Source of the DNA: Polyangia bacterium
Lineage (GTDB): Bacteria; Myxococcota_A; Polyangia; Fen-1088
Direction of reading: 5' to 3'
NCBI GenBank assembly: GCA_036494575.1
Contig: DASXOE010000154.1
Location: 17,345 to 81,344, forward strand
Length of the DNA: 64,000 nucleotides
The notes under the pieces: generated by a model
The model's input: only the letters and a program-made list of their open reading frames with translations
Told to the model about the DNA's origin: nothing
Databases searched by the model: none
In this document: in pieces, positions 30,664-37,950 of the stretch
How the letters are laid out: each line of letters opens with the position of its first letter
How positions within the stretch are numbered: the stretch's first letter is position 1
Position numbers and translations under genes: made by a program

Positions 30664-31506
30664 TCATCTGGCGGGCGGTTTGCGGGCCTTCGCCACGGCT
30701 CCCACGATCGTGATGGGGAACGCCGCGCCGTGGAAGTAGGCGTCGATGGCTTCCTTCGTGAACAGGAGGACGTCCTGCATGTCCTCGCCGCGGCCGGCGA
30801 TGCGCTTCCAGCGCGAGAGCGGTCCGAGCTCGACGAGCGGCGCGAAGAAGAATTCGCGGGCGCTCTTGAAGAGGATCTCCCAGCGCTCGACGGCGAGCTC
30901 GACGCCGGCGAGGCCGGCGCGCTCGAGCCAGGACGCGACGATGGACCCGTCAGGCACGGAGGCGACGTGCTCGGCCAGCGCCGCCACGCTCTCTGGCGTG
31001 CCGTTCTCCAGCAACACGTCACGATAGATGTCGAGGAACTCGGTCCACGATCCGCGCAACGGCGTCGTCAAGAGGAGCTGGCCGCCCGGGGCGAGGACGC
31101 GCGCGAGCTCGCGCACGGCGAACGGCGGATCCTCGAAGGCGGCCGACGCGAGATTCGAAACGACGATATCGGCGGAGGCGTCGGGGACGGGCAGGGGCGC
31201 CGCTGGCGCGCGCTCGAAGGTCACGCGCCCCGGGGCAGCGGCCTCCAGTCTGGCGCGCGCCTGCGCGACGAAGGGCGCCTCGTCGAGCGCGATGAACCGT
31301 GACGCGGCGTCGAAACGGCGCACGAGCTCGAGCGTGAGCGCGCCGGTGGCGCAGCCCACCTCGACGACGCGCGCGGCAGGCCGCACCTCGAGCGCGTCGA
31401 GGAGCATCGCCGCGAAACGTTGCCCGTAGGCCGGCGCCACCTCGGCGTCGTAGATGCGCGCGAGGCGCTCCTGCTTCTCGAGGGTGCCTGGCTTGACCGG
31501 TATCAC
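30664..31506 (-). CDS. Class I SAM-dependent methyltransferase
   Basis: Motif I VVEVGCATGALTLEL, motif II DIVVSNL, motif III LAPGGQLLL. GTG start at 31506 overlaps the upstream stop as GTGA. Confidence 0.8.
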   Translation of the reverse strand: MIPVKPGTLEKQERLARIYDAEVAPAYGQRFAAMLLDALEVRPAARVVEVGCATGALTLELVRRFDAASRFIALDEAPFVAQARARLEAAAPGRVTFERAPAAPLPVPDASADIVVSNLASAAFEDPPFAVRELARVLAPGGQLLLTTPLRGSWTEFLDIYRDVLLENGTPESVAALAEHVASVPDGSIVASWLERAGLAGVELAVERWEILFKSAREFFFAPLVELGPLSRWKRIAGRGEDMQDVLLFTKEAIDAYFHGAAFPITIVGAVAKARKPPAR

Positions 31507-32888
31507 GACTTCCCCTCGGTCTTGCCGACGGGCGCGGGCGGATGCCAGCCGCGCACGGGACCGAGCGCCCGCCGCGTCCCCTCGTAGCGGCCCGCGACGT
31601 ACTTGCAAGCCAGCAGGTAGAGCGCCGACGAGATTCGATTGAGCACGTGCGCGAGATCGGCGCGCGCGGGGGGCGCCGTGGCGCCGCCCGTCTCGGCGGG
31701 GAACGCCGCCGTGACGGCGACCTCCGCCTCGCGCGCGACGGCGCGCGCCAGGCCGAGCTTGGCCACGACCGGGCCCTGCCGCACGTCGGGGTACATGAAC
31801 GGCACGCCATAGAGCTCGTGCGTGTGGTGGGTCGCATCGCGAAGCTCGTCGTCGCCCATGCCGAAGAGGCTCACGGGGGGCGCCGGCCTGCCCGTCACCT
31901 CGGCGCCCACGAGCGACCGCGCGAGCTCGAGGATCTCGCCGAGCTCGCCCACGAGCATGCTCGCGCCCTCGGCGTCCGCCGCCGTCTGCGCGTCGAGCAC
32001 GGCGGACTGCAGGAGGTCGAGCTTGCCGCGCGCGACGATGCGCGGGTGCGTCTTGCGCACGAGCGAGGCGTCGTCGAGAAGATGCGTCAGGTGGTCGGGC
32101 TTGGTGGCGAAGCGCTCTCCCGTTTCGAGCGCGCGGTACTTGCCGTTCGGATCGAGCGCCAGTGTGGGGGCTGGGGCTGGAGCTGAAGCTGGAGCCGCCG
32201 CGCCTCCGGCGACCACGCCATGCCCGCGCGGCGCGCGGCACACGTCGACGATGGCCTCGGCGAAGGCCCGCGCCGCGGCCTCGCAGGCCGCCTGGTCCCC
32301 CACGAGATACCCGCCGCCGAAGTTCGTCTCCGACGGCGGACCGAACCACTTGGCGAGCGTCGTGCGCGCCGCCTTGCAAGCGGCGTCGAGCCCCACGATC
32401 GATTCGAGCGGCGGCGCGATGAGGTAGGCGAGGGCGCTGCCCATTGGGGCGTCGGCCAGCGGTGCGAGGTAACGACCCACCGACGCGATGACGTGCGGGA
32501 AGAAGAGCACGGGACGCCCAGGCGCCCCGGCCGTCTCGACGGCGTAGAACCAAGCTTCCGTCTCGAGGTAGGCGAGACAGGCCTCGAGCGCGGCGTCGAT
32601 CTCCGCGGGATCCTGCGCGGCGTAAATGCCGATGCACTCGCCCGACAGCGGCCCCGAGGGGTGGCTCGAGCCGGCGTAGAACGACTTCGCGTAGACGACC
32701 TCGGCGGAGGCCGCCTTTGTGCCCTCGTCGAGCGACGCGAAGAGCGCGTCGTCGGAGGTCGCCGTGACGATGCCGAGCGCCCGCTGCCGCGGCGGCAGGC
32801 CGAGGGCTTCGGCCAGCGCGGGCGCGGCGTCGTCGATGCGCCGCACGGAGAGCGCGCGCGGCTTGACGGGCGGCAGGTCGAGCTTCAC
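31503..32888 (-). CDS. eutL: Fusion protein: N-terminal EutL-type tandem BMC shell domain and C-terminal PduO-type ATP:cob(I)alamin adenosyltransferase-like domain
   Basis: Residues 1-215 align closely with E. coli EutL (LGIVTATSDDALF..EVVYAKSFYAG..AYLIAPPLESIVGLDAA..PPSETNF..GDQAACEAAARAFAEAIVDV). An Ala/Pro linker follows. Residues ~245-440 follow the Cob_adeno_trans pattern (THPRIVARGKLDLL; LGEILELARSLVGAEVTG; FMYPDVRQGPVVAKLGLARAVAREAEVAV; LNRISSALYLLACKY). GTG start overlaps the eutC stop (GTGA). Confidence 0.7.
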   Translation of the reverse strand: MKLDLPPVKPRALSVRRIDDAAPALAEALGLPPRQRALGIVTATSDDALFASLDEGTKAASAEVVYAKSFYAGSSHPSGPLSGECIGIYAAQDPAEIDAALEACLAYLETEAWFYAVETAGAPGRPVLFFPHVIASVGRYLAPLADAPMGSALAYLIAPPLESIVGLDAACKAARTTLAKWFGPPSETNFGGGYLVGDQAACEAAARAFAEAIVDVCRAPRGHGVVAGGAAAPASAPAPAPTLALDPNGKYRALETGERFATKPDHLTHLLDDASLVRKTHPRIVARGKLDLLQSAVLDAQTAADAEGASMLVGELGEILELARSLVGAEVTGRPAPPVSLFGMGDDELRDATHHTHELYGVPFMYPDVRQGPVVAKLGLARAVAREAEVAVTAAFPAETGGATAPPARADLAHVLNRISSALYLLACKYVAGRYEGTRRALGPVRGWHPPAPVGKTEGKS

Positions 32889-33739
32889 AGCACGACGCCC
32901 GACTTCTTGTCGCGCAGCACGCGCTCGAGGGCCGCGGCCACGTCGCGCGCCGCCTCGGCGGGCGGGCGGCCGCGCGGGTTGATGTTCGAGATGACCTCGC
33001 GGTCGGCGTCGGTGGCGCCCGCGGCGGGCTGGTAGATGAAGTAGGCCGAGAGCGAGTCGGCGAAGCCGAGCCCGGGCCGCTCGCCGCAGATGAAGACGGC
33101 GGCCTCGGCGCCCGTGAGGCGCGCGATTTCGTCCATGATCTTGACGCGCGAGTGACGCACGAAGAACGCGGGCGCGTGCGCGAGGCCGCGCGCGGCGAGG
33201 GCCGCGACGAGCGCGCCGTGGAACTCGGGCAGGTGCTGGTTGATGGCCGCCGCCGACAGGCCGTCGCCGTAGATGACGACGAGCCGCGGCGCTTTGCCGA
33301 TGCGCTTGCCGAGCTCGACGCGCGCCTCGTCGGACAGCGCGCGCCCGAGATCGGGGCGCTGGAGGAAGATGGCCTTGTCGGGCGCGCGCGAGGCGATCTC
33401 GAAGAGCTCGAGCCGGCGCAAGAGCGCGGCGTCGACCTCCGACAGCACGGCGTCCTTCGCGGCGGCGTGATCGGCGCGGAAGCGCAGCATCGTGTTGGTG
33501 CGGTAGCGCGTGCCCGCGCGGCCCACGGCGACGCGCGCGGGCGTCGCCGCAAGAATGGACGGCATGACGCGCGGGTCGTAGGGCTCGCCGATGTTGACGC
33601 CGCGGTCGGGCGTCAGGAGGAGCGTGCCGCCGGAGTCGAGGGGGAGAGCCGTGTCGGAGGGTTTGACGGGAGTGGCGCTCGTTTGCTTTCGGAGAGCTTC
33701 CCTCACCATGGCTTCGATGCGCGTGCGATCGATCATCAC
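32885..33739 (-). CDS. eutC: Ethanolamine ammonia-lyase small (light) subunit
   Basis: Full-length similarity to EutC (RAVGRAGTRYRT, LVVIYGDGLS, ICGERPGLG). Confidence 0.9.
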   Translation of the reverse strand: MMIDRTRIEAMVREALRKQTSATPVKPSDTALPLDSGGTLLLTPDRGVNIGEPYDPRVMPSILAATPARVAVGRAGTRYRTNTMLRFRADHAAAKDAVLSEVDAALLRRLELFEIASRAPDKAIFLQRPDLGRALSDEARVELGKRIGKAPRLVVIYGDGLSAAAINQHLPEFHGALVAALAARGLAHAPAFFVRHSRVKIMDEIARLTGAEAAVFICGERPGLGFADSLSAYFIYQPAAGATDADREVISNINPRGRPPAEAARDVAAALERVLRDKKSGVVL

Positions 33740-35101
33740 TTACCCAAAAATCGACGCGTCGCCCGCGCGCGTCGTGAGCTTGCCGTTCGACATGAGCCCG
33801 AGCTCCTCCAGCCAGGCCTCGAACTCGGGCGCGGGGCGCAGGCCCATGAGCTGCCGCAACGTCGCGTCGTCGTGGAACGAGGTCGACTGGTAGTTGAGCA
33901 TGACGTCGTCGCCCATGGGCAGACCCATGAAGAAGTTGCAGCCCGCCGTCGTGAGCAGCACCTCGAGGTTCTCGAGGTCGTTCTGGTCGGCGTCGGCGTG
34001 ATTCGTGTAGCACGCGTCGCAGCCCATCGAGATGCCGTGCAGCTTGCCCATGAAGTGGTCCTCGAGGCCGGCGCGCGTGATCTGGCGCGCGTCGTAGAGA
34101 TACTCGGGGCCGATGAAGCCGACGACCGTGTTGACGAGGAACGGGCGGTAGTGGCGCGCGAGGCCGTAGTTGCGCGCCTCGAGCGTCATCTGATCGGCGC
34201 CGTGGTGCGCGTCGGCCGAGAGCGCCGAGCCCTGGCCCGTCTCGAAGTACATGACGTTGGGGCCCGCGCACTGGCCGAGCTTGAGCGTCATGTCGTGGGC
34301 CTCGTCGAGGAGCGCGAGTGTGACGCCGAAGCTGCGCAGCGCCTTCTCCGTGCCCGCGATCGACTGGAACATGAGCCCGAGCGCGGCGCCCTGCTCGAGC
34401 GCCTTCATCTGCGTCGTGACGTGGGCGAGGCAGCAGTTCTGCGTGGGCACGCGCCACGTGCGCATGAAATCGCCTGTGGCGTTCAAGATGGCCGCCGTCT
34501 GCGTGGGATTGTCGGTCACGGGGTTGACGCCGATGACGGCGTCGCCCGCGCCGAAGGAGAGCCCGTCGCGCAGCGACGCGAGGATGCCCTCGATCGAATC
34601 GGACGGGTGGTTCGGCTGCAGGCGCACCGAGAGGCGCCCGGGGAGGCCGACGGTGTTCGTCGCGTGCACGACGACGCGAATCTTGCGCGCCGCGACGATG
34701 AGGTCGAGGTTCGTCATGAGCTTGGCGCAGGCCGCGATCATCTCGCTCGTGAGGCCGCGCCCGAGGCGCAAGAGCTCGGCGCCGTCGTTGCGATCGTCGA
34801 GCACGTACTCGCGCAGGCGCGAGACCGTCCACGACTTCACGGAGTCGTAGACCGGGCGCTGCAGGTCGTCGAAAATGAGGCGCGTCACGGCGTCTTCCTC
34901 GGGCGGCACGACCGGGTGCTCGTGCAGGTCCGCCAGGGTCAGCTCGGCGAGCACCCGCTTGGCCGCGACGCGCTCGGAGACGCTCGCCGCAGCCACGCCC
35001 GCGAGCCGATCACCCGACTTCTCCTCGTTGGCCTTCGCGAGCACGTCCTTGACGTCTCGAAACCGGTACGTGGTTCCGCGCAACGTCGCCCCGAGGTTCA
35101 T
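33740..35101 (-). CDS. eutB: Ethanolamine ammonia-lyase large (heavy) subunit
   Basis: 453 aa, the same length as E. coli EutB. Conserved throughout (YRFRDVKDVLAKANE, VNPVTDNP, MYFETGQGSA, GLPMGDDVMLNYQ). Start at MNLGAT (ATG 35101). Confidence 0.95.
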   Translation of the reverse strand: MNLGATLRGTTYRFRDVKDVLAKANEEKSGDRLAGVAAASVSERVAAKRVLAELTLADLHEHPVVPPEEDAVTRLIFDDLQRPVYDSVKSWTVSRLREYVLDDRNDGAELLRLGRGLTSEMIAACAKLMTNLDLIVAARKIRVVVHATNTVGLPGRLSVRLQPNHPSDSIEGILASLRDGLSFGAGDAVIGVNPVTDNPTQTAAILNATGDFMRTWRVPTQNCCLAHVTTQMKALEQGAALGLMFQSIAGTEKALRSFGVTLALLDEAHDMTLKLGQCAGPNVMYFETGQGSALSADAHHGADQMTLEARNYGLARHYRPFLVNTVVGFIGPEYLYDARQITRAGLEDHFMGKLHGISMGCDACYTNHADADQNDLENLEVLLTTAGCNFFMGLPMGDDVMLNYQSTSFHDDATLRQLMGLRPAPEFEAWLEELGLMSNGKLTTRAGDASIFG

Positions 35102-35124
35102 CGGAGGCGCGACCGTACCACGAA

Positions 35125-35334
35125 CTACGTCTTCGGCCTCCACGTGAAGGGCACGCGGCACATCACGCAGTCGAGCACGGTGCCCACCATCTCGCCCCGC
35201 GACGCTTCGGTGAGCACCCAGGGACGGATCTCCCAGGGCGGGTTGTGGCGGACGTGCTGCTCGTGCCCGCACTCGAGCTCGGCGATCCAGTGCTGGTTCG
35301 CGTCCTGGTGAAATCCCGTGATGCGCCGGCGCAT
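35125..35334 (-). CDS. DUF3565-family small Cys/His-rich protein
   Basis: ITGFHQDANQHWIAELECGHEQHVRHNPPW...CVMC matches the DUF3565 signature. 23 nt upstream of eutB. Confidence 0.7.
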   Translation of the reverse strand: MRRRITGFHQDANQHWIAELECGHEQHVRHNPPWEIRPWVLTEASRGEMVGTVLDCVMCRVPFTWRPKT

Positions 35335-35351: not shown

Positions 35352-36509
35352 TCAACGACCGGCGCGCAGGAAGCGCAGGATCGTCTGCTCGGCGAGCTGC
35401 TCGCCGAGGCCCCCGAAGATGAAGTCGAAGGCGTGCTGCCCGTAGGGCACGACGAGCACCTCGTGCCGCACGCCCGCCGCGGAGAGCTTCGCGTCCATGA
35501 CCTCCGTGTGCGCGAGCGGCACGAAGGCGTCGTGGCCACCGTGCAGAAGCAGCGTGGGCGGGGCAGCCGACGTGACGTGCGTCAGCGGTGAGAGCAGCCG
35601 GAAACGTTCGGGCTGCGTCGCCGGTGTGCCGCCGACGTAGCTCCCCAGGCGGCCGGGCGTGTCGAAGACCCGCGGGTTCGTGGGGTGGTTCCAGGCCCAA
35701 ACGAGATCGGTGGGACCGTAGAACGAGATGACGGAAGCGACGTGGGTGTCCCCGGCCGCGCAGCTCGGCGGCAAAGCCGGTTCGTCCGGCGCGTAAGCGG
35801 CGAGCATCGCGAGGTGCGCGCCGGCCGAGCGCCCGAGCAGCGTGACGCGCGCCGGGTCGACCTCGACGCCGACGTCGCGCGCGTGCCGTTTGACCCAGCC
35901 GATGGCGCATTTGACGTCGCCGATGGCCGTTTGCCACGTGGGCTGCGGCCCGAGCCGGTACTGGACGTCGAAGACGGCCCAGCCGTGCTCCGCGAGCCAG
36001 GCGCTCATGCGCGGCGCGCTGCCCTTGTCGCCCGCGGACCACCCGCCCTCGTGCAGCACGATGATCGCGGGCGCGCGCGCCGCGGCGCTCGCCGGCGGCG
36101 TGGGCCGATAGACGTCGAGCGCGAGCGCCTGACCGCCAATCGTGTTGTACACCACCGTTTGCGACGGGTGACCGCCGTCCTCGTCGACGGGCGCCCGCAG
36201 GTAACGCGCGAAATCGATGGCGACGTGGTTCTTCACGCCGACGCGCAAGGCCTGCGCGGGCGGAACGCACGCGACGGCGACGATGGCGAGGCCGAGCGTC
36301 GTCTGTACGACGATCCAGGCGCGTGCCTGCGACAGGCGGGCCAATCCCGCCGCCAAGACGACGGCCGCCACGACGAAGAGGGTCTTCTCGTCGAAGAAGA
36401 TCGCGAGGTAAGACGCCGCCTTCGTTGGCGCGGGCAGGACGAGGAGGGCGGCGACGGCCGCTGCGGCGAGGGTCAAGAGAATGGAGACCCAGCGGGCCAG
36501 CGCGCGCAC
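35352..36509 (-). CDS. Membrane-anchored alpha/beta hydrolase (esterase/lipase family)
   Basis: Three N-terminal TM helices. HGGGW oxyanion motif variant (LHEGGWSAGD), GRSAG nucleophile elbow and catalytic His (GQHAF). Confidence 0.8.
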   Translation of the reverse strand: MRALARWVSILLTLAAAAVAALLVLPAPTKAASYLAIFFDEKTLFVVAAVVLAAGLARLSQARAWIVVQTTLGLAIVAVACVPPAQALRVGVKNHVAIDFARYLRAPVDEDGGHPSQTVVYNTIGGQALALDVYRPTPPASAAARAPAIIVLHEGGWSAGDKGSAPRMSAWLAEHGWAVFDVQYRLGPQPTWQTAIGDVKCAIGWVKRHARDVGVEVDPARVTLLGRSAGAHLAMLAAYAPDEPALPPSCAAGDTHVASVISFYGPTDLVWAWNHPTNPRVFDTPGRLGSYVGGTPATQPERFRLLSPLTHVTSAAPPTLLLHGGHDAFVPLAHTEVMDAKLSAAGVRHEVLVVPYGQHAFDFIFGGLGEQLAEQTILRFLRAGR

Positions 36510-36554: not shown

Positions 36555-37411
36555 TCACGACCGATGCCGACTTCGGAAGCTTCGGGCGGGTTCTTCCCGT
36601 TCGTCTGCATGCCCCGCTGGCCGCGTTCCCTCGTCGTTGACCTTCACGAGGGGGGCCAGGAATGCGTTCAGAGCCGCCACGACGGGGGCGGGGACGTCGT
36701 GGCCGCCGTCGAAGGGCACCCAGGTCACCTTCAGGCCCGCGGCGGCGAGCTCGTGCGCGAAGCTTTCGTCGGCGGCGAAAGGCAGGATGCGATCGGCGCG
36801 GCCGTGCGAAATGAAGACCGGCAGGCCGGCCCGTCGCGCGAAGCCGCGCCGCCAGGTCGCGACGTCCACCGGGGTCCCCGAAAGGAGCACGAGCGCCGTG
36901 ATGACGTCGTCCGTCGTGAACGCGATCTCGCTCGCGACCATGGCGCCTTGCGAGAAGCCCCCGAGCACGAGGGGGCCGGACGAGGCGCGCTCGCGGACGA
37001 GCGCGCGCACGCTCGCAGCGGCGACGTCGATGCCCGGGGGGTGGAACGCGGCGAGGTCCGGCAGCTGGCTGCCCGCGTGAACGTGAGATTCGAGGTCGAG
37101 CCGCCACCAGGCCCGGCCGCCGATCGGACCGTCTGGCGGGCGGGTCGCCTCGGGAGCTTGCGGGAAAATGTACCGGGTCCCGGGCGGCAAGACGATCGTC
37201 GTCGCGAACGGCACCCAATCGGTCGCCTTCGCGGCGTATCCGTGGAGCAGCACGAGCGTCGGTGGTCCCTCGCCGCCGCGCACGACGGCGGCGAGGTGCG
37301 ACAGGTGGGTGCGGCCCGCATGCGACGCGGCGCCCACGAGGAGGGAAGCGAACGCCAGGGCGGCCAGAGCCGGCGCACGGTGCGGATGACGCCTCGCCTC
37401 GGGTGTGCTCA
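36555..37411 (-). CDS. Secreted phospholipase/carboxylesterase-family alpha/beta hydrolase
   Basis: Signal peptide. LLHGYAA, GFSQGA nucleophile elbow, GxHD. GTG start inferred at 37411. Confidence 0.7.
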
Positions 37412-37624: not shown

Positions 37625-37798
37625 TCAGCAGACCGAAGAGAGGGCGCGGCTGTGGTTGCCGGTGGCGAGGCCGCCGGCCTTGACGGCGGAGCGGACCTTG
37701 AGGCCGGCGCGGTTGTGGTTGCCGGTGGCGAGGCCGCCGGCCTTGATTCCGGCCTTGATCGCGAGGGTCGTCTTCGTGGTCTTCGTCGAGGTCGTCAT
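37625..37798 (-). CDS. 57-aa internally repeated small protein (Thr/Lys-rich N-terminus, 2x KAGGLATGNH[NS]RA repeat)
   Basis: Very strong SD (AAGGAGA) with 6-nt spacing to the ATG. A ~36-bp direct repeat in the DNA gives two near-identical peptide repeats. Ends ...SSVC. Confidence 0.5.
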   Translation of the reverse strand: MTTSTKTTKTTLAIKAGIKAGGLATGNHNRAGLKVRSAVKAGGLATGNHSRALSSVC

Positions 37799-37950
37799 TT
37801 TCATTCTCCTTGGTTCGTTGTTGGCGTTGGGGACGCCTGACCTCGATTGCAGCTGGCGTGCCAGCACGAACCCCGCAGAAACTGCGGTGTTTGCGCGCGC
37901 GCGCTCGTGTGCGCGAAGGTGAAGGCAGAGCCTTCGCGCTCGTCATATGA

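Follow-up and report, generated by a model that had tools for sequence, protein, structure and literature searches.

A EutL fused to a EutT-type adenosyltransferase domain in a eutA-less ethanolamine ammonia-lyase module of a Polyangia bacterium

What does an ethanolamine ammonia-lyase (EAL) do in the company of a DUF3565 mini-protein, a class I S-adenosylmethionine (SAM) methyltransferase (MT) and two hydrolases? The question is raised by an operon on the minus strand of a 64,000-nucleotide (nt) stretch of DNA from a Polyangia bacterium (GenBank assembly GCA_036494575.1, contig DASXOE010000154.1, positions 17,345 to 81,344), whose G+C content is about 72%; the whole stretch is referred to as the window. 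Proteins annotated from a Polyangia (Myxococcota) MAG (metagenome-assembled genome) are identical to those encoded in this region. An earlier note on this DNA had regarded the additional genes as unusual partners of the lyase and had suggested that its substrate may be something other than plain ethanolamine. The comparative analysis favors a different answer, at a probability of roughly 0.65: the locus would be a self-contained ethanolamine utilization (EUT) module that lacks eutA and in which EutL is fused to EutT, and MT, DUF3565 and the hydrolases would be its neighbors. What stands out is a EutL::EutT fusion, widespread and part of a three-gene module without eutA; satellite loci of the EUT-module type are themselves already known.

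The lyase genes, the fusion gene and the parts of their products that matter for the argument are located as follows. BMC stands for bacterial microcompartment, ATR for adenosyltransferase and aa for amino acids.

Positions 33740-35101, minus strand: eutB, large subunit of the EAL, 453 aa, separated from the DUF3565 gene by a 23-nt spacer.
Positions 32885-33739, minus strand: eutC, small subunit of the EAL, 284 aa counted from the GTG at 33739.
Positions 31503-32888, minus strand: EutL::ATR fusion, 461 aa, its GTG start overlapping the eutC stop as GTGA.
Positions 32226-32870, minus strand: EutL domain of the fusion (tandem permuted BMC domains, BMC-Tsp), residues 7-221.
Positions 31605-32111, minus strand: residues 260-428 of the fusion, forming its EutT-type ATP:cob(I)alamin adenosyltransferase domain.
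Positions 31536-31592, minus strand: GRYEGTRRALGPVRGWHPP, a conserved tail at the C-terminus of the fusion.
Positions 33686-33733, minus strand: N-terminal amphipathic helix of EutC, IDRTRIEAMVREALRK, similar to an encapsulation peptide.

The fusion protein, which the earlier note listed but did not single out, is the conserved and unusual element of the locus. Its EutL domain scores 244.8 bits with the NCBIfam model NF011934 (cutoff 198) and 262.9 bits with TIGR04502, under the cutoff of 300 of the latter; over 213 residues (8-220) it aligns with the solved EutL structures 3u27 (E=3e-52) and 4edi (E=9e-51). An Ala/Pro-rich linker leads to the ATR domain, in which residues 268-428 match PF01923 (Cob_adeno_trans; 48.5 bits, cutoff 24). 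The domain can be aligned with the free EutT of a Firmicutes locus (L077), and both contain the motifs KPxxxTHL, HPRIxxRGxLD, SH, and LNRxSS; the Cys-rich N-terminal motif that forms the metal-binding part of the enterobacterial enzyme is present in neither. Judged by these alignments, the domain is of the EutT type and is devoid of the N-terminal region found in enterobacteria. The tail of the fusion, with the motif GRY(E/D)GxRRPxGPV(R/K)GW(R/K)PP, occurs in all myxobacterial fusions among loci L001-L059, with or without an MT gene downstream, and is missing from the fusions of L053-L057, of which L053-L054 are themselves labelled as Myxococcales metagenome-assembled genomes (MAGs). It may act as a docking peptide.

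The fusion is not a peculiarity of one genome. Its relatives form 523 protein clusters, the best 120 of which all measure 443-485 aa and are at least 72% identical. Gene neighborhoods were counted in 60 fusion loci among species-representative genomes, nearly all of them MAGs of Polyangia, Myxococcales or Haliangiales; a few are labelled Pseudomonadota, "Proteobacteria" or Deltaproteobacteria, and one is a Lentisphaerae MAG. The core conserved across these loci is made up of eutB and eutC together with the fusion gene. None of the 60 fused EutL genes is accompanied by eutA, whereas eutA is present in 15 of the 20 loci with an unfused EutL (canonical BMC loci). In the Firmicutes locus L077, eutL and eutT are separate, adjacent genes, an arrangement from which the fusion could plausibly have originated. 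In the Lentisphaerae locus L055, the fusion gene has three BMC genes for its neighbors (BMC-H, BMC-P and a further one), together with a gene for an aldehyde dehydrogenase (AldDh). As the earlier note had observed for permease, regulator and acetaldehyde-handling genes, the operon of the window is compact: in tblastn searches, genes for a permease, a regulator, an aldehyde dehydrogenase, EutA, BMC-H and BMC-P were all missing from its immediate surroundings, and none of those tested, including eutA, EutE-type aldehyde dehydrogenase, BMC-H and BMC-P, gave a match anywhere in the window.

The lyase appears to be ordinary. EutB scores 699.9 bits with PF06751 and 671.9 bits with the NCBIfam subfamily model NF011649 (cutoff 554), and EutC 252.9 bits with PF05985 and, over residues 57-284, 262.8 bits with the NCBIfam equivalog NF003971 (cutoff 230). 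End-to-end alignments of EutB with solved EALs (e.g., Listeria PDB ID: 2qez, E=3e-194, and E. coli PDB ID: 3abo, E=2e-187) reach 626-649 bits. All five residues checked in comparison with E. coli EutB (R160, Q162, N193, E287, and D362), which we take to be those of its substrate/cofactor site (Shibata et al. 2010), are kept at collinear positions. Going by sequence, EutBC should be a canonical EAL dependent on adenosylcobalamin (AdoCbl), converting ethanolamine to acetaldehyde and ammonia. As both subunits are canonical and the catalytic residues are intact, there is no hint of a substrate other than ethanolamine, and the suggestion of such a substrate in the earlier note finds no support in the enzyme.

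The N-terminal helix of EutC, also written IDRTRIEAMVREAL, lies outside the catalytic domain matched by NF003971. Its consensus (I/V)DRxR(I/V)ExxVRxxL recurs in essentially all related loci and is followed by a variable linker. The helix is similar to residues 1-19 of Salmonella EutC, MDQKQIEEIVRSVMASMGQ, which have been experimentally validated as a signal that targets cargo to Eut shells (PMC3299773; see also PMC12487888), while EutC from the shell-free system of Acinetobacter baumannii is devoid of such an N-terminal signal (PMC9426561). Since the encapsulation-peptide-like N-terminus is retained here, the lyase is probably docked to a compartment or to a EutL::ATR trimer.

Within the reading preferred here, the parts would cooperate as follows. 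EutBC would carry out the ordinary AdoCbl-dependent reaction, and the trimeric EutL part would hold cobalamin, its pore being postulated to gate the entry of AdoCbl. The tethered EutT domains would adenosylate the cobalamin, i.e., the cofactor would be made or re-made where cobalamin is held; the fusion would take the place of a separate eutT and would go with the absence of the reactivase gene eutA. EutBC, docked through the EutC peptide, would receive the cofactor, and the docking target could be either, under the satellite-locus model, a compartment whose genes lie in another part of the genome or the EutL::ATR trimer directly. MT would be co-transcribed and translationally coupled, yet a resident neighbor rather than an enzyme of the pathway, and the DUF3565 and hydrolase genes would have been inserted recently upstream of eutB. 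A more specific proposal, put forward only tentatively and with the odds appreciably against it, is that EutL::EutT represents a pseudohexameric shell tile with an adenosyltransferase at the cobalamin pore, that EutA is dispensable in its presence and that such tiles are widespread in soil Polyangia.

Several observations weigh against the preferred reading. Homology is the ground on which we infer adenosyltransferase activity and cobalamin binding of the fusion, and with the EutT equivalog NF011595 the ATR domain reaches just 59.2 bits against a cutoff of 226, with only model positions 87-246 matched. About 59 Polyangia fusion loci show neither BMC-H nor BMC-P within 7 kb, and the 64 kb of the window likewise have neither. 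Three fusions (L030:6974-8314, L034:2003-3292, and L037:1589-2890) are solitary, with neither eutBC nor MT in flanks that cover up to 7 kb (only 1.6-2 kb upstream in L034 and in L037). The solitary genes may be second copies or may serve another B12 enzyme; the one in L030 comes after a glycerol-kinase-like gene. Integration of the fusion into a shell is therefore no more than putative. The adverse points that concern MT are taken up with that gene below.

The absence of shell genes and the solitary fusions are accommodated by the alternative that survives best, which rivals only that half of the preferred reading in which the module is a satellite of a BMC. Here the EutL domain would be a soluble trimeric cobalamin platform that recruits EutBC via the EutC helix and hands over freshly adenosylated cofactor. 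Neither AldDh nor eutA is found nearby, the clade-specific C-terminal tail suggests new interactions, and the A. baumannii EAL is active without shell or reactivase (PMC9426561), all of which would agree with such a platform. It is less easily reconciled with an EutL domain more than 50% identical to shell-forming EutL, with the retained encapsulation-like peptide of EutC, with the fusion inside a complete BMC locus in L055 or with published catalogues, in which myxobacterial EutBC+EutL modules, one with a EutL of 437 aa, are placed as satellites of HO/SPU3 BMCs. The EutC helix, the catalogue and the context of L055 favor a link to a compartment encoded elsewhere; a shell-free scaffold is about equally likely, because none of the Polyangia fusions has a shell gene in its vicinity and solitary fusions exist. 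Taken by itself, this alternative is a serious possibility whose chances fall somewhat short of even.

The remaining genes of the operon and those directly upstream are as follows.

Positions 30664-31506, minus strand: class I SAM methyltransferase (MT), 280 aa, overlapping the stop of the fusion gene by 4 nt (GTGA).
Positions 35125-35334, minus strand: DUF3565 mini-protein, 69 aa, 17 nt downstream of the BD-FAE hydrolase.
Positions 35352-36509, minus strand: BD-FAE / Abhydrolase_3 esterase (PF20434, 138 bits) with N-terminal hydrophobic segments.
Positions 36555-37400, minus strand: Abhydrolase_2 protein of the phospholipase/carboxylesterase family (PF02230, 71.6 bits).

The chain of five minus-strand genes reported in the earlier note (DUF3565, eutB, eutC, the fusion, and MT) is borne out, together with the 23-nt gap between DUF3565 and eutB and both GTGA overlaps. 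Its stop-adjacent ATG for eutC needs correction: the junction reads TAA GTG ATG, i.e., the codon abutting the eutB stop TAA is GTG, and the alternative ATG follows 3 nt further on, at 33736. Translational coupling, which had been claimed for the full operon, holds from eutB through eutC and the fusion to MT and does not extend to DUF3565 and eutB. Upstream of DUF3565 lie the BD-FAE esterase, the Abhydrolase_2 protein, a TAXI-like protein and hisD; the 3' end of the unit is followed by a convergent lipoprotein-like open reading frame (ORF) and then by a pair of genes for an extracytoplasmic function (ECF) sigma factor and its anti-sigma factor. Neither a cobalamin riboswitch nor any other Rfam family was detected between 28 and 42 kb of the window, and a scan for promoters and terminators gave results no better than those for shuffled sequences. 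Between the TAXI-like and Abhydrolase_2 genes, a small ORF at 37625-37800 on the minus strand, preceded by a strong Shine-Dalgarno sequence (AAGGAG), encodes MKMTTSTKTTKTTLAIKAGIKAGGLATGNHNRAGLKVRSAVKAGGLATGNHSRALSSVC. In the product, which has no NCBIfam match, KAGGLATGNH(N/S)R occurs twice and a Cys stands at the C-terminus; it is a candidate precursor peptide or small peptide with repeats.

MT exceeds the Pfam cutoffs of Methyltransf_11, 25 and 31 and has the conserved glycine-rich SAM motif VEVGCATG. Its AlphaFold2 (AF2) model (predicted local distance difference test score, pLDDT, 90.6) resembles MT structures in Foldseek (E about 1e-17), the closest of which are generic small-molecule MTs (OxaG, YcgJ, GtmA/TmtA, RebM, and JHAMT). 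Assignments to BioC, UbiE/MenG, CpaM, ArsM or Tam were rejected, all NCBIfam equivalogs scoring far under their cutoffs (best: BioC 59.5 bits against 185, CpaM 43.8 against 180), and the sequence matches in the PDB are too generic to indicate a subtype. Many MT relatives (P0361, P0362, P0393, and P0425 among them) carry acidic or proline-rich, apparently disordered C-terminal extensions of 200-550 aa. A search for "Rosetta-stone" domains in these longer relatives was given up, as the extra parts are disordered tails with no Pfam domain.

MT could nevertheless be a true partner of EutL::ATR in a conserved unit eutB-eutC-fusion-MT. Its target might be the corrinoid or one of the proteins, EutL::ATR or EutBC, or it might form or use up a small molecule linked to cofactor recycling. 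One part of the partnership claimed in the earlier note, the adjacency of MT, stood up to comparison: of the 56 assessable loci with the fusion, 45 have MT after it, at MT identities that go down to about 40%. An NTGA overlap between the two genes is possible in 24 of the 45 loci that carry both, too many related loci for the overlap to be due to chance, and it is kept even at about 40% MT identity (L032, L035, L036, L045, and L060). Insertions are frequent between eutB and eutC and between eutC and the fusion; at the fusion-MT junction, the most stable of the operon, they are rare (only L009). The junction is real evidence for co-expression. The fusion and MT also stay paired where eutBC has moved away (L023 and L041) or is not found in the locus (L089), and this stable pairing hints at a functional tie between MT and EutL::ATR. 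A weak similarity to the corrinoid-protein-associated MT CpaM points the same way. In L009, the sole clear break in the junction is an ORF for an Xre/MbcA-ParS-type antitoxin (L009:8488-8850), and the insertion probably includes the toxin partner.

The wider distribution of the MT family speaks against such a partnership. Among the fusion loci whose downstream sequence spans 2 kb or more, 11 are without MT, the true BMC locus L055 being one of them, and an exhaustive search recovered full-length relatives across Myxococcota down to about 30% identity. The three family members whose loci were looked up have no eut gene nearby: they directly precede ligA in two MAGs of Myxococcota (L096 and L097), and they lie beside rpsB-tsf-pyrH-frr on a metagenome contig (L094) and beside apbE in Pseudenhygromyxa sp. 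WMMC2535 (L093). With the eut-linked MTs of L032-L047, the homologs from L094 and L096 share 44-60% identity and the window MT 39-45%, so the eut-linked MTs do not constitute a separate subfamily. Moreover, ligA follows MT, overlapping it or at a distance of at most 8 nt, in L008, L032, L035, and L038, and the MT-ligA overlaps of 4 nt in L032 and 1 nt in L035 are as tight as those between the fusion and MT. As a control, in L008 and L009 a gap of just 8 nt parts hisD from eutB. Closely packed genes are thus no proof of common function in these genomes. The CpaM score remains far under its cutoff, and the structural neighbors are generic. Because the family also occurs without eut genes and beside ligA, the adjacency is explained at least as well by synteny, and MT is most likely a resident neighbor, with the eut cassette lying ahead of it, rather than an enzyme of the ethanolamine pathway; a true partnership seems unlikely.

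A deletion of about 3.5 kb at L086:6282-6375, also present in L087 and L088 (three metagenome samples, near-identical in sequence), takes most of eutB and all of eutC and the fusion and leaves the first 94-147 nt or so of eutB along with intact DUF3565 and MT. Its use as proof that MT is independent was downgraded, since the deletion is recent and the remnant of eutB is as window-like as the flanks. The sister lineage L092 retains eutB, eutC, and the fusion, which makes the loss in L086-88 weak evidence for the independence of MT and counts with the adverse points above.

DUF3565 is clearly assigned to its family (PF12088, 98.3 bits against a cutoff of 25) and contains the GHxQH motif as CGHEQHVRH. 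The alignment has invariant C22, H24, H27, H30, C56, and C59, suggestive of a small zinc site. The AF2 model (pLDDT 84) has no significant structural neighbor in the PDB, and no PDB sequence match, NCBIfam model or paper mentioning DUF3565 was found that would indicate a function. The adjacency on which the earlier note relied is not conserved, an outcome that the note itself had named as refuting: DUF3565 is present in four of the 60 genome loci (L001, L002, L004, and L005), all closest relatives, always after the BD-FAE esterase, and elsewhere it occurs in an unrelated context (order GNAT-Pirin-DUF3565). The esterase is restricted to these four loci, L086-88, L091 and L092, and the Abhydrolase_2 gene to L002, L004, L005, and L091. 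In the majority of the other loci eutB comes right after hisD, which identifies the TAXI/hydrolase/DUF3565 block as a recent insertion between the two. The DUF3565 and hydrolase genes are accordingly a lineage-specific inserted block outside the conserved module, the same block that includes the two hydrolases once suggested to supply an amino-alcohol. The block itself varies between relatives: where the two hydrolase genes of the window are separated by only 45 nt, a Tautomerase_2 gene stands between them in L086:4397-4786 and L091:2537-2926.

The "unusual partners" are hence present as genes; their partnership in the pathway is not upheld and dissolves mostly into synteny (MT) and recent insertion (DUF3565). 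The model of the earlier note, in which MT, DUF3565, and the hydrolases adapt the lyase to another amino-alcohol or modify its product, could draw on the co-directional genes with spacers of 17-45 nt from the hydrolases to eutB and on a weak similarity of MT to plant phosphoethanolamine N-methyltransferases (E about 1e-6; Foldseek rank 16). It is very improbable and largely refuted by comparative genomics, since DUF3565 and the hydrolases are missing in 56 of 60 genome loci and DUF3565 is found in unrelated contexts, EutB and EutC pass curated cutoffs with the five checked active-site residues kept, the matches to phosphoethanolamine N-methyltransferases are no better than those to dozens of unrelated MTs, and the reaction would run the wrong way to supply an EAL, as a methyltransferase puts methyl groups on rather than taking them off.

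Other small ORFs are found within related operons. A sub-clade has an ORF of 80-90 aa between eutC and the fusion that encodes a CxxC...CPCC zinc ribbon, with no Pfam match and weak Lar-like or ECs_2282-like matches; it represents a second Cys-rich mini-protein recruited to a eut operon and is unrelated to DUF3565. In other loci or the same ones, one to three lipoprotein-like ORFs with no Pfam domains separate eutB from eutC.

L031:4123, L032:6712-6960, L035:5482-5754, L038:6745-6987, and L045:5251: CPCC zinc-ribbon ORF.
L008:5149-6120, L009:5321-6148, L032:2720-5825, L035:1360-4579, and L038:2612-5847: lipoprotein-like ORFs.

The lipoprotein-like ORFs of L008 have start/stop overlaps with both EAL subunit genes, an odd split between the subunits of one enzyme. 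DUF3565 or the CPCC zinc ribbon was also considered as a metal-binding piece acting in trans for EutT; as a general mechanism the idea was discarded, since most fusion loci have neither.

Access of a cofactor of the size of B12 to the interior of microcompartments, and its recycling there, are still argued, the gated pore and the cobalamin-bound structure of EutL being the main clues. If the fusion were a shell tile as outlined above, entry or capture of the cofactor and its activation would be united in one physical unit, which might plug an ethanolamine module into HO/SPU-type compartments or might serve as a minimal scaffold with no shell. A widespread natural fusion of EutL with an adenosyltransferase constitutes "Rosetta-stone" evidence of physical cooperation and offers a simple construct for testing; it would also be a natural precedent for engineered fusions of cargo to shell proteins. 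Soil myxobacteria, as the fusion further suggests, make use of an ethanolamine module of three genes that has no EutA. For this picture MT and DUF3565 matter little, because their presence is explained mainly by local gene order.

Among known systems, the locus is closest to the "EUT modules" of Sutter et al. 2021, satellite loci of HO, SPU3, and SPU6 BMCs (PMC8217296). These BMCs occur mainly in Deltaproteobacteria, and the module comprises EutB/C (with EutA, according to the main text) and an EutL-type BMC-Tsp (PMC8217296). The locus of the window corresponds to this definition, having EutB/C, an EutL-type BMC-Tsp and no other shell gene. In the shell-protein tree of the same work, myxobacterial EutL proteins measure 217-233 aa, and a single "eutL" of 437 aa, labelled HO(sat), is very probably the same fusion. 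The module described here differs in having no eutA and in the EutT-type adenosyltransferase domain carried by EutL; no description of an EutL-adenosyltransferase fusion was found in the text and supplements of PMC8217296 that were searched, in Axen 2014 or in further literature searches.

Short operons with no shell, such as those of Pseudomonas aeruginosa and A. baumannii (eat-eutBC and an aldehyde dehydrogenase), are similarly minimal in their gene set, and the A. baumannii EAL works without shell or reactivase (PMC9426561; PMC5821096). Shell-protein homologs and EutT are both missing there, as is the N-terminal signal from A. baumannii EutC, whereas the present module has the EutL domain, the EutT domain and the EutC helix, and no permease or aldehyde dehydrogenase. 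With the canonical eut operons found in Salmonella, E. coli, and Firmicutes, the locus has in common the order eutB-eutC-eutL, an ATR dedicated to the pathway, the targeting-like helix of EutC and an EutB that matches the E. coli EAL with E=2e-187. Unlike them, it has no EutA, EutE, EutD, EutG, EutM, EutN, EutS, EutK, permease or regulator, and in place of the arrangement eutA-eutB-eutC-eutL with a separate eutT, it has a EutT without the N-terminal part, fused to EutL. The role proposed for the EutL part agrees with a crystal structure of EutL with cobalamin (Thompson 2014, PDB ID: 4U6I, as cited in PMC5853799) and with the passage of AdoCbl through the EutL pore postulated in reviews (PMC5821096). 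For the ATR part, the nearest counterpart is a class of EutT from Listeria and other Firmicutes that does not depend on metal (Costa and Escalante-Semerena 2018, as presented in PMC7677406 and PMC9426561): the domain aligns with the Firmicutes EutT of L077, and neither has the Cys-rich N-terminal motif. In the fusion, the EutT-type domain stands behind a BMC-T domain, with EutL and the linker replacing about 50 N-terminal residues of free EutT.

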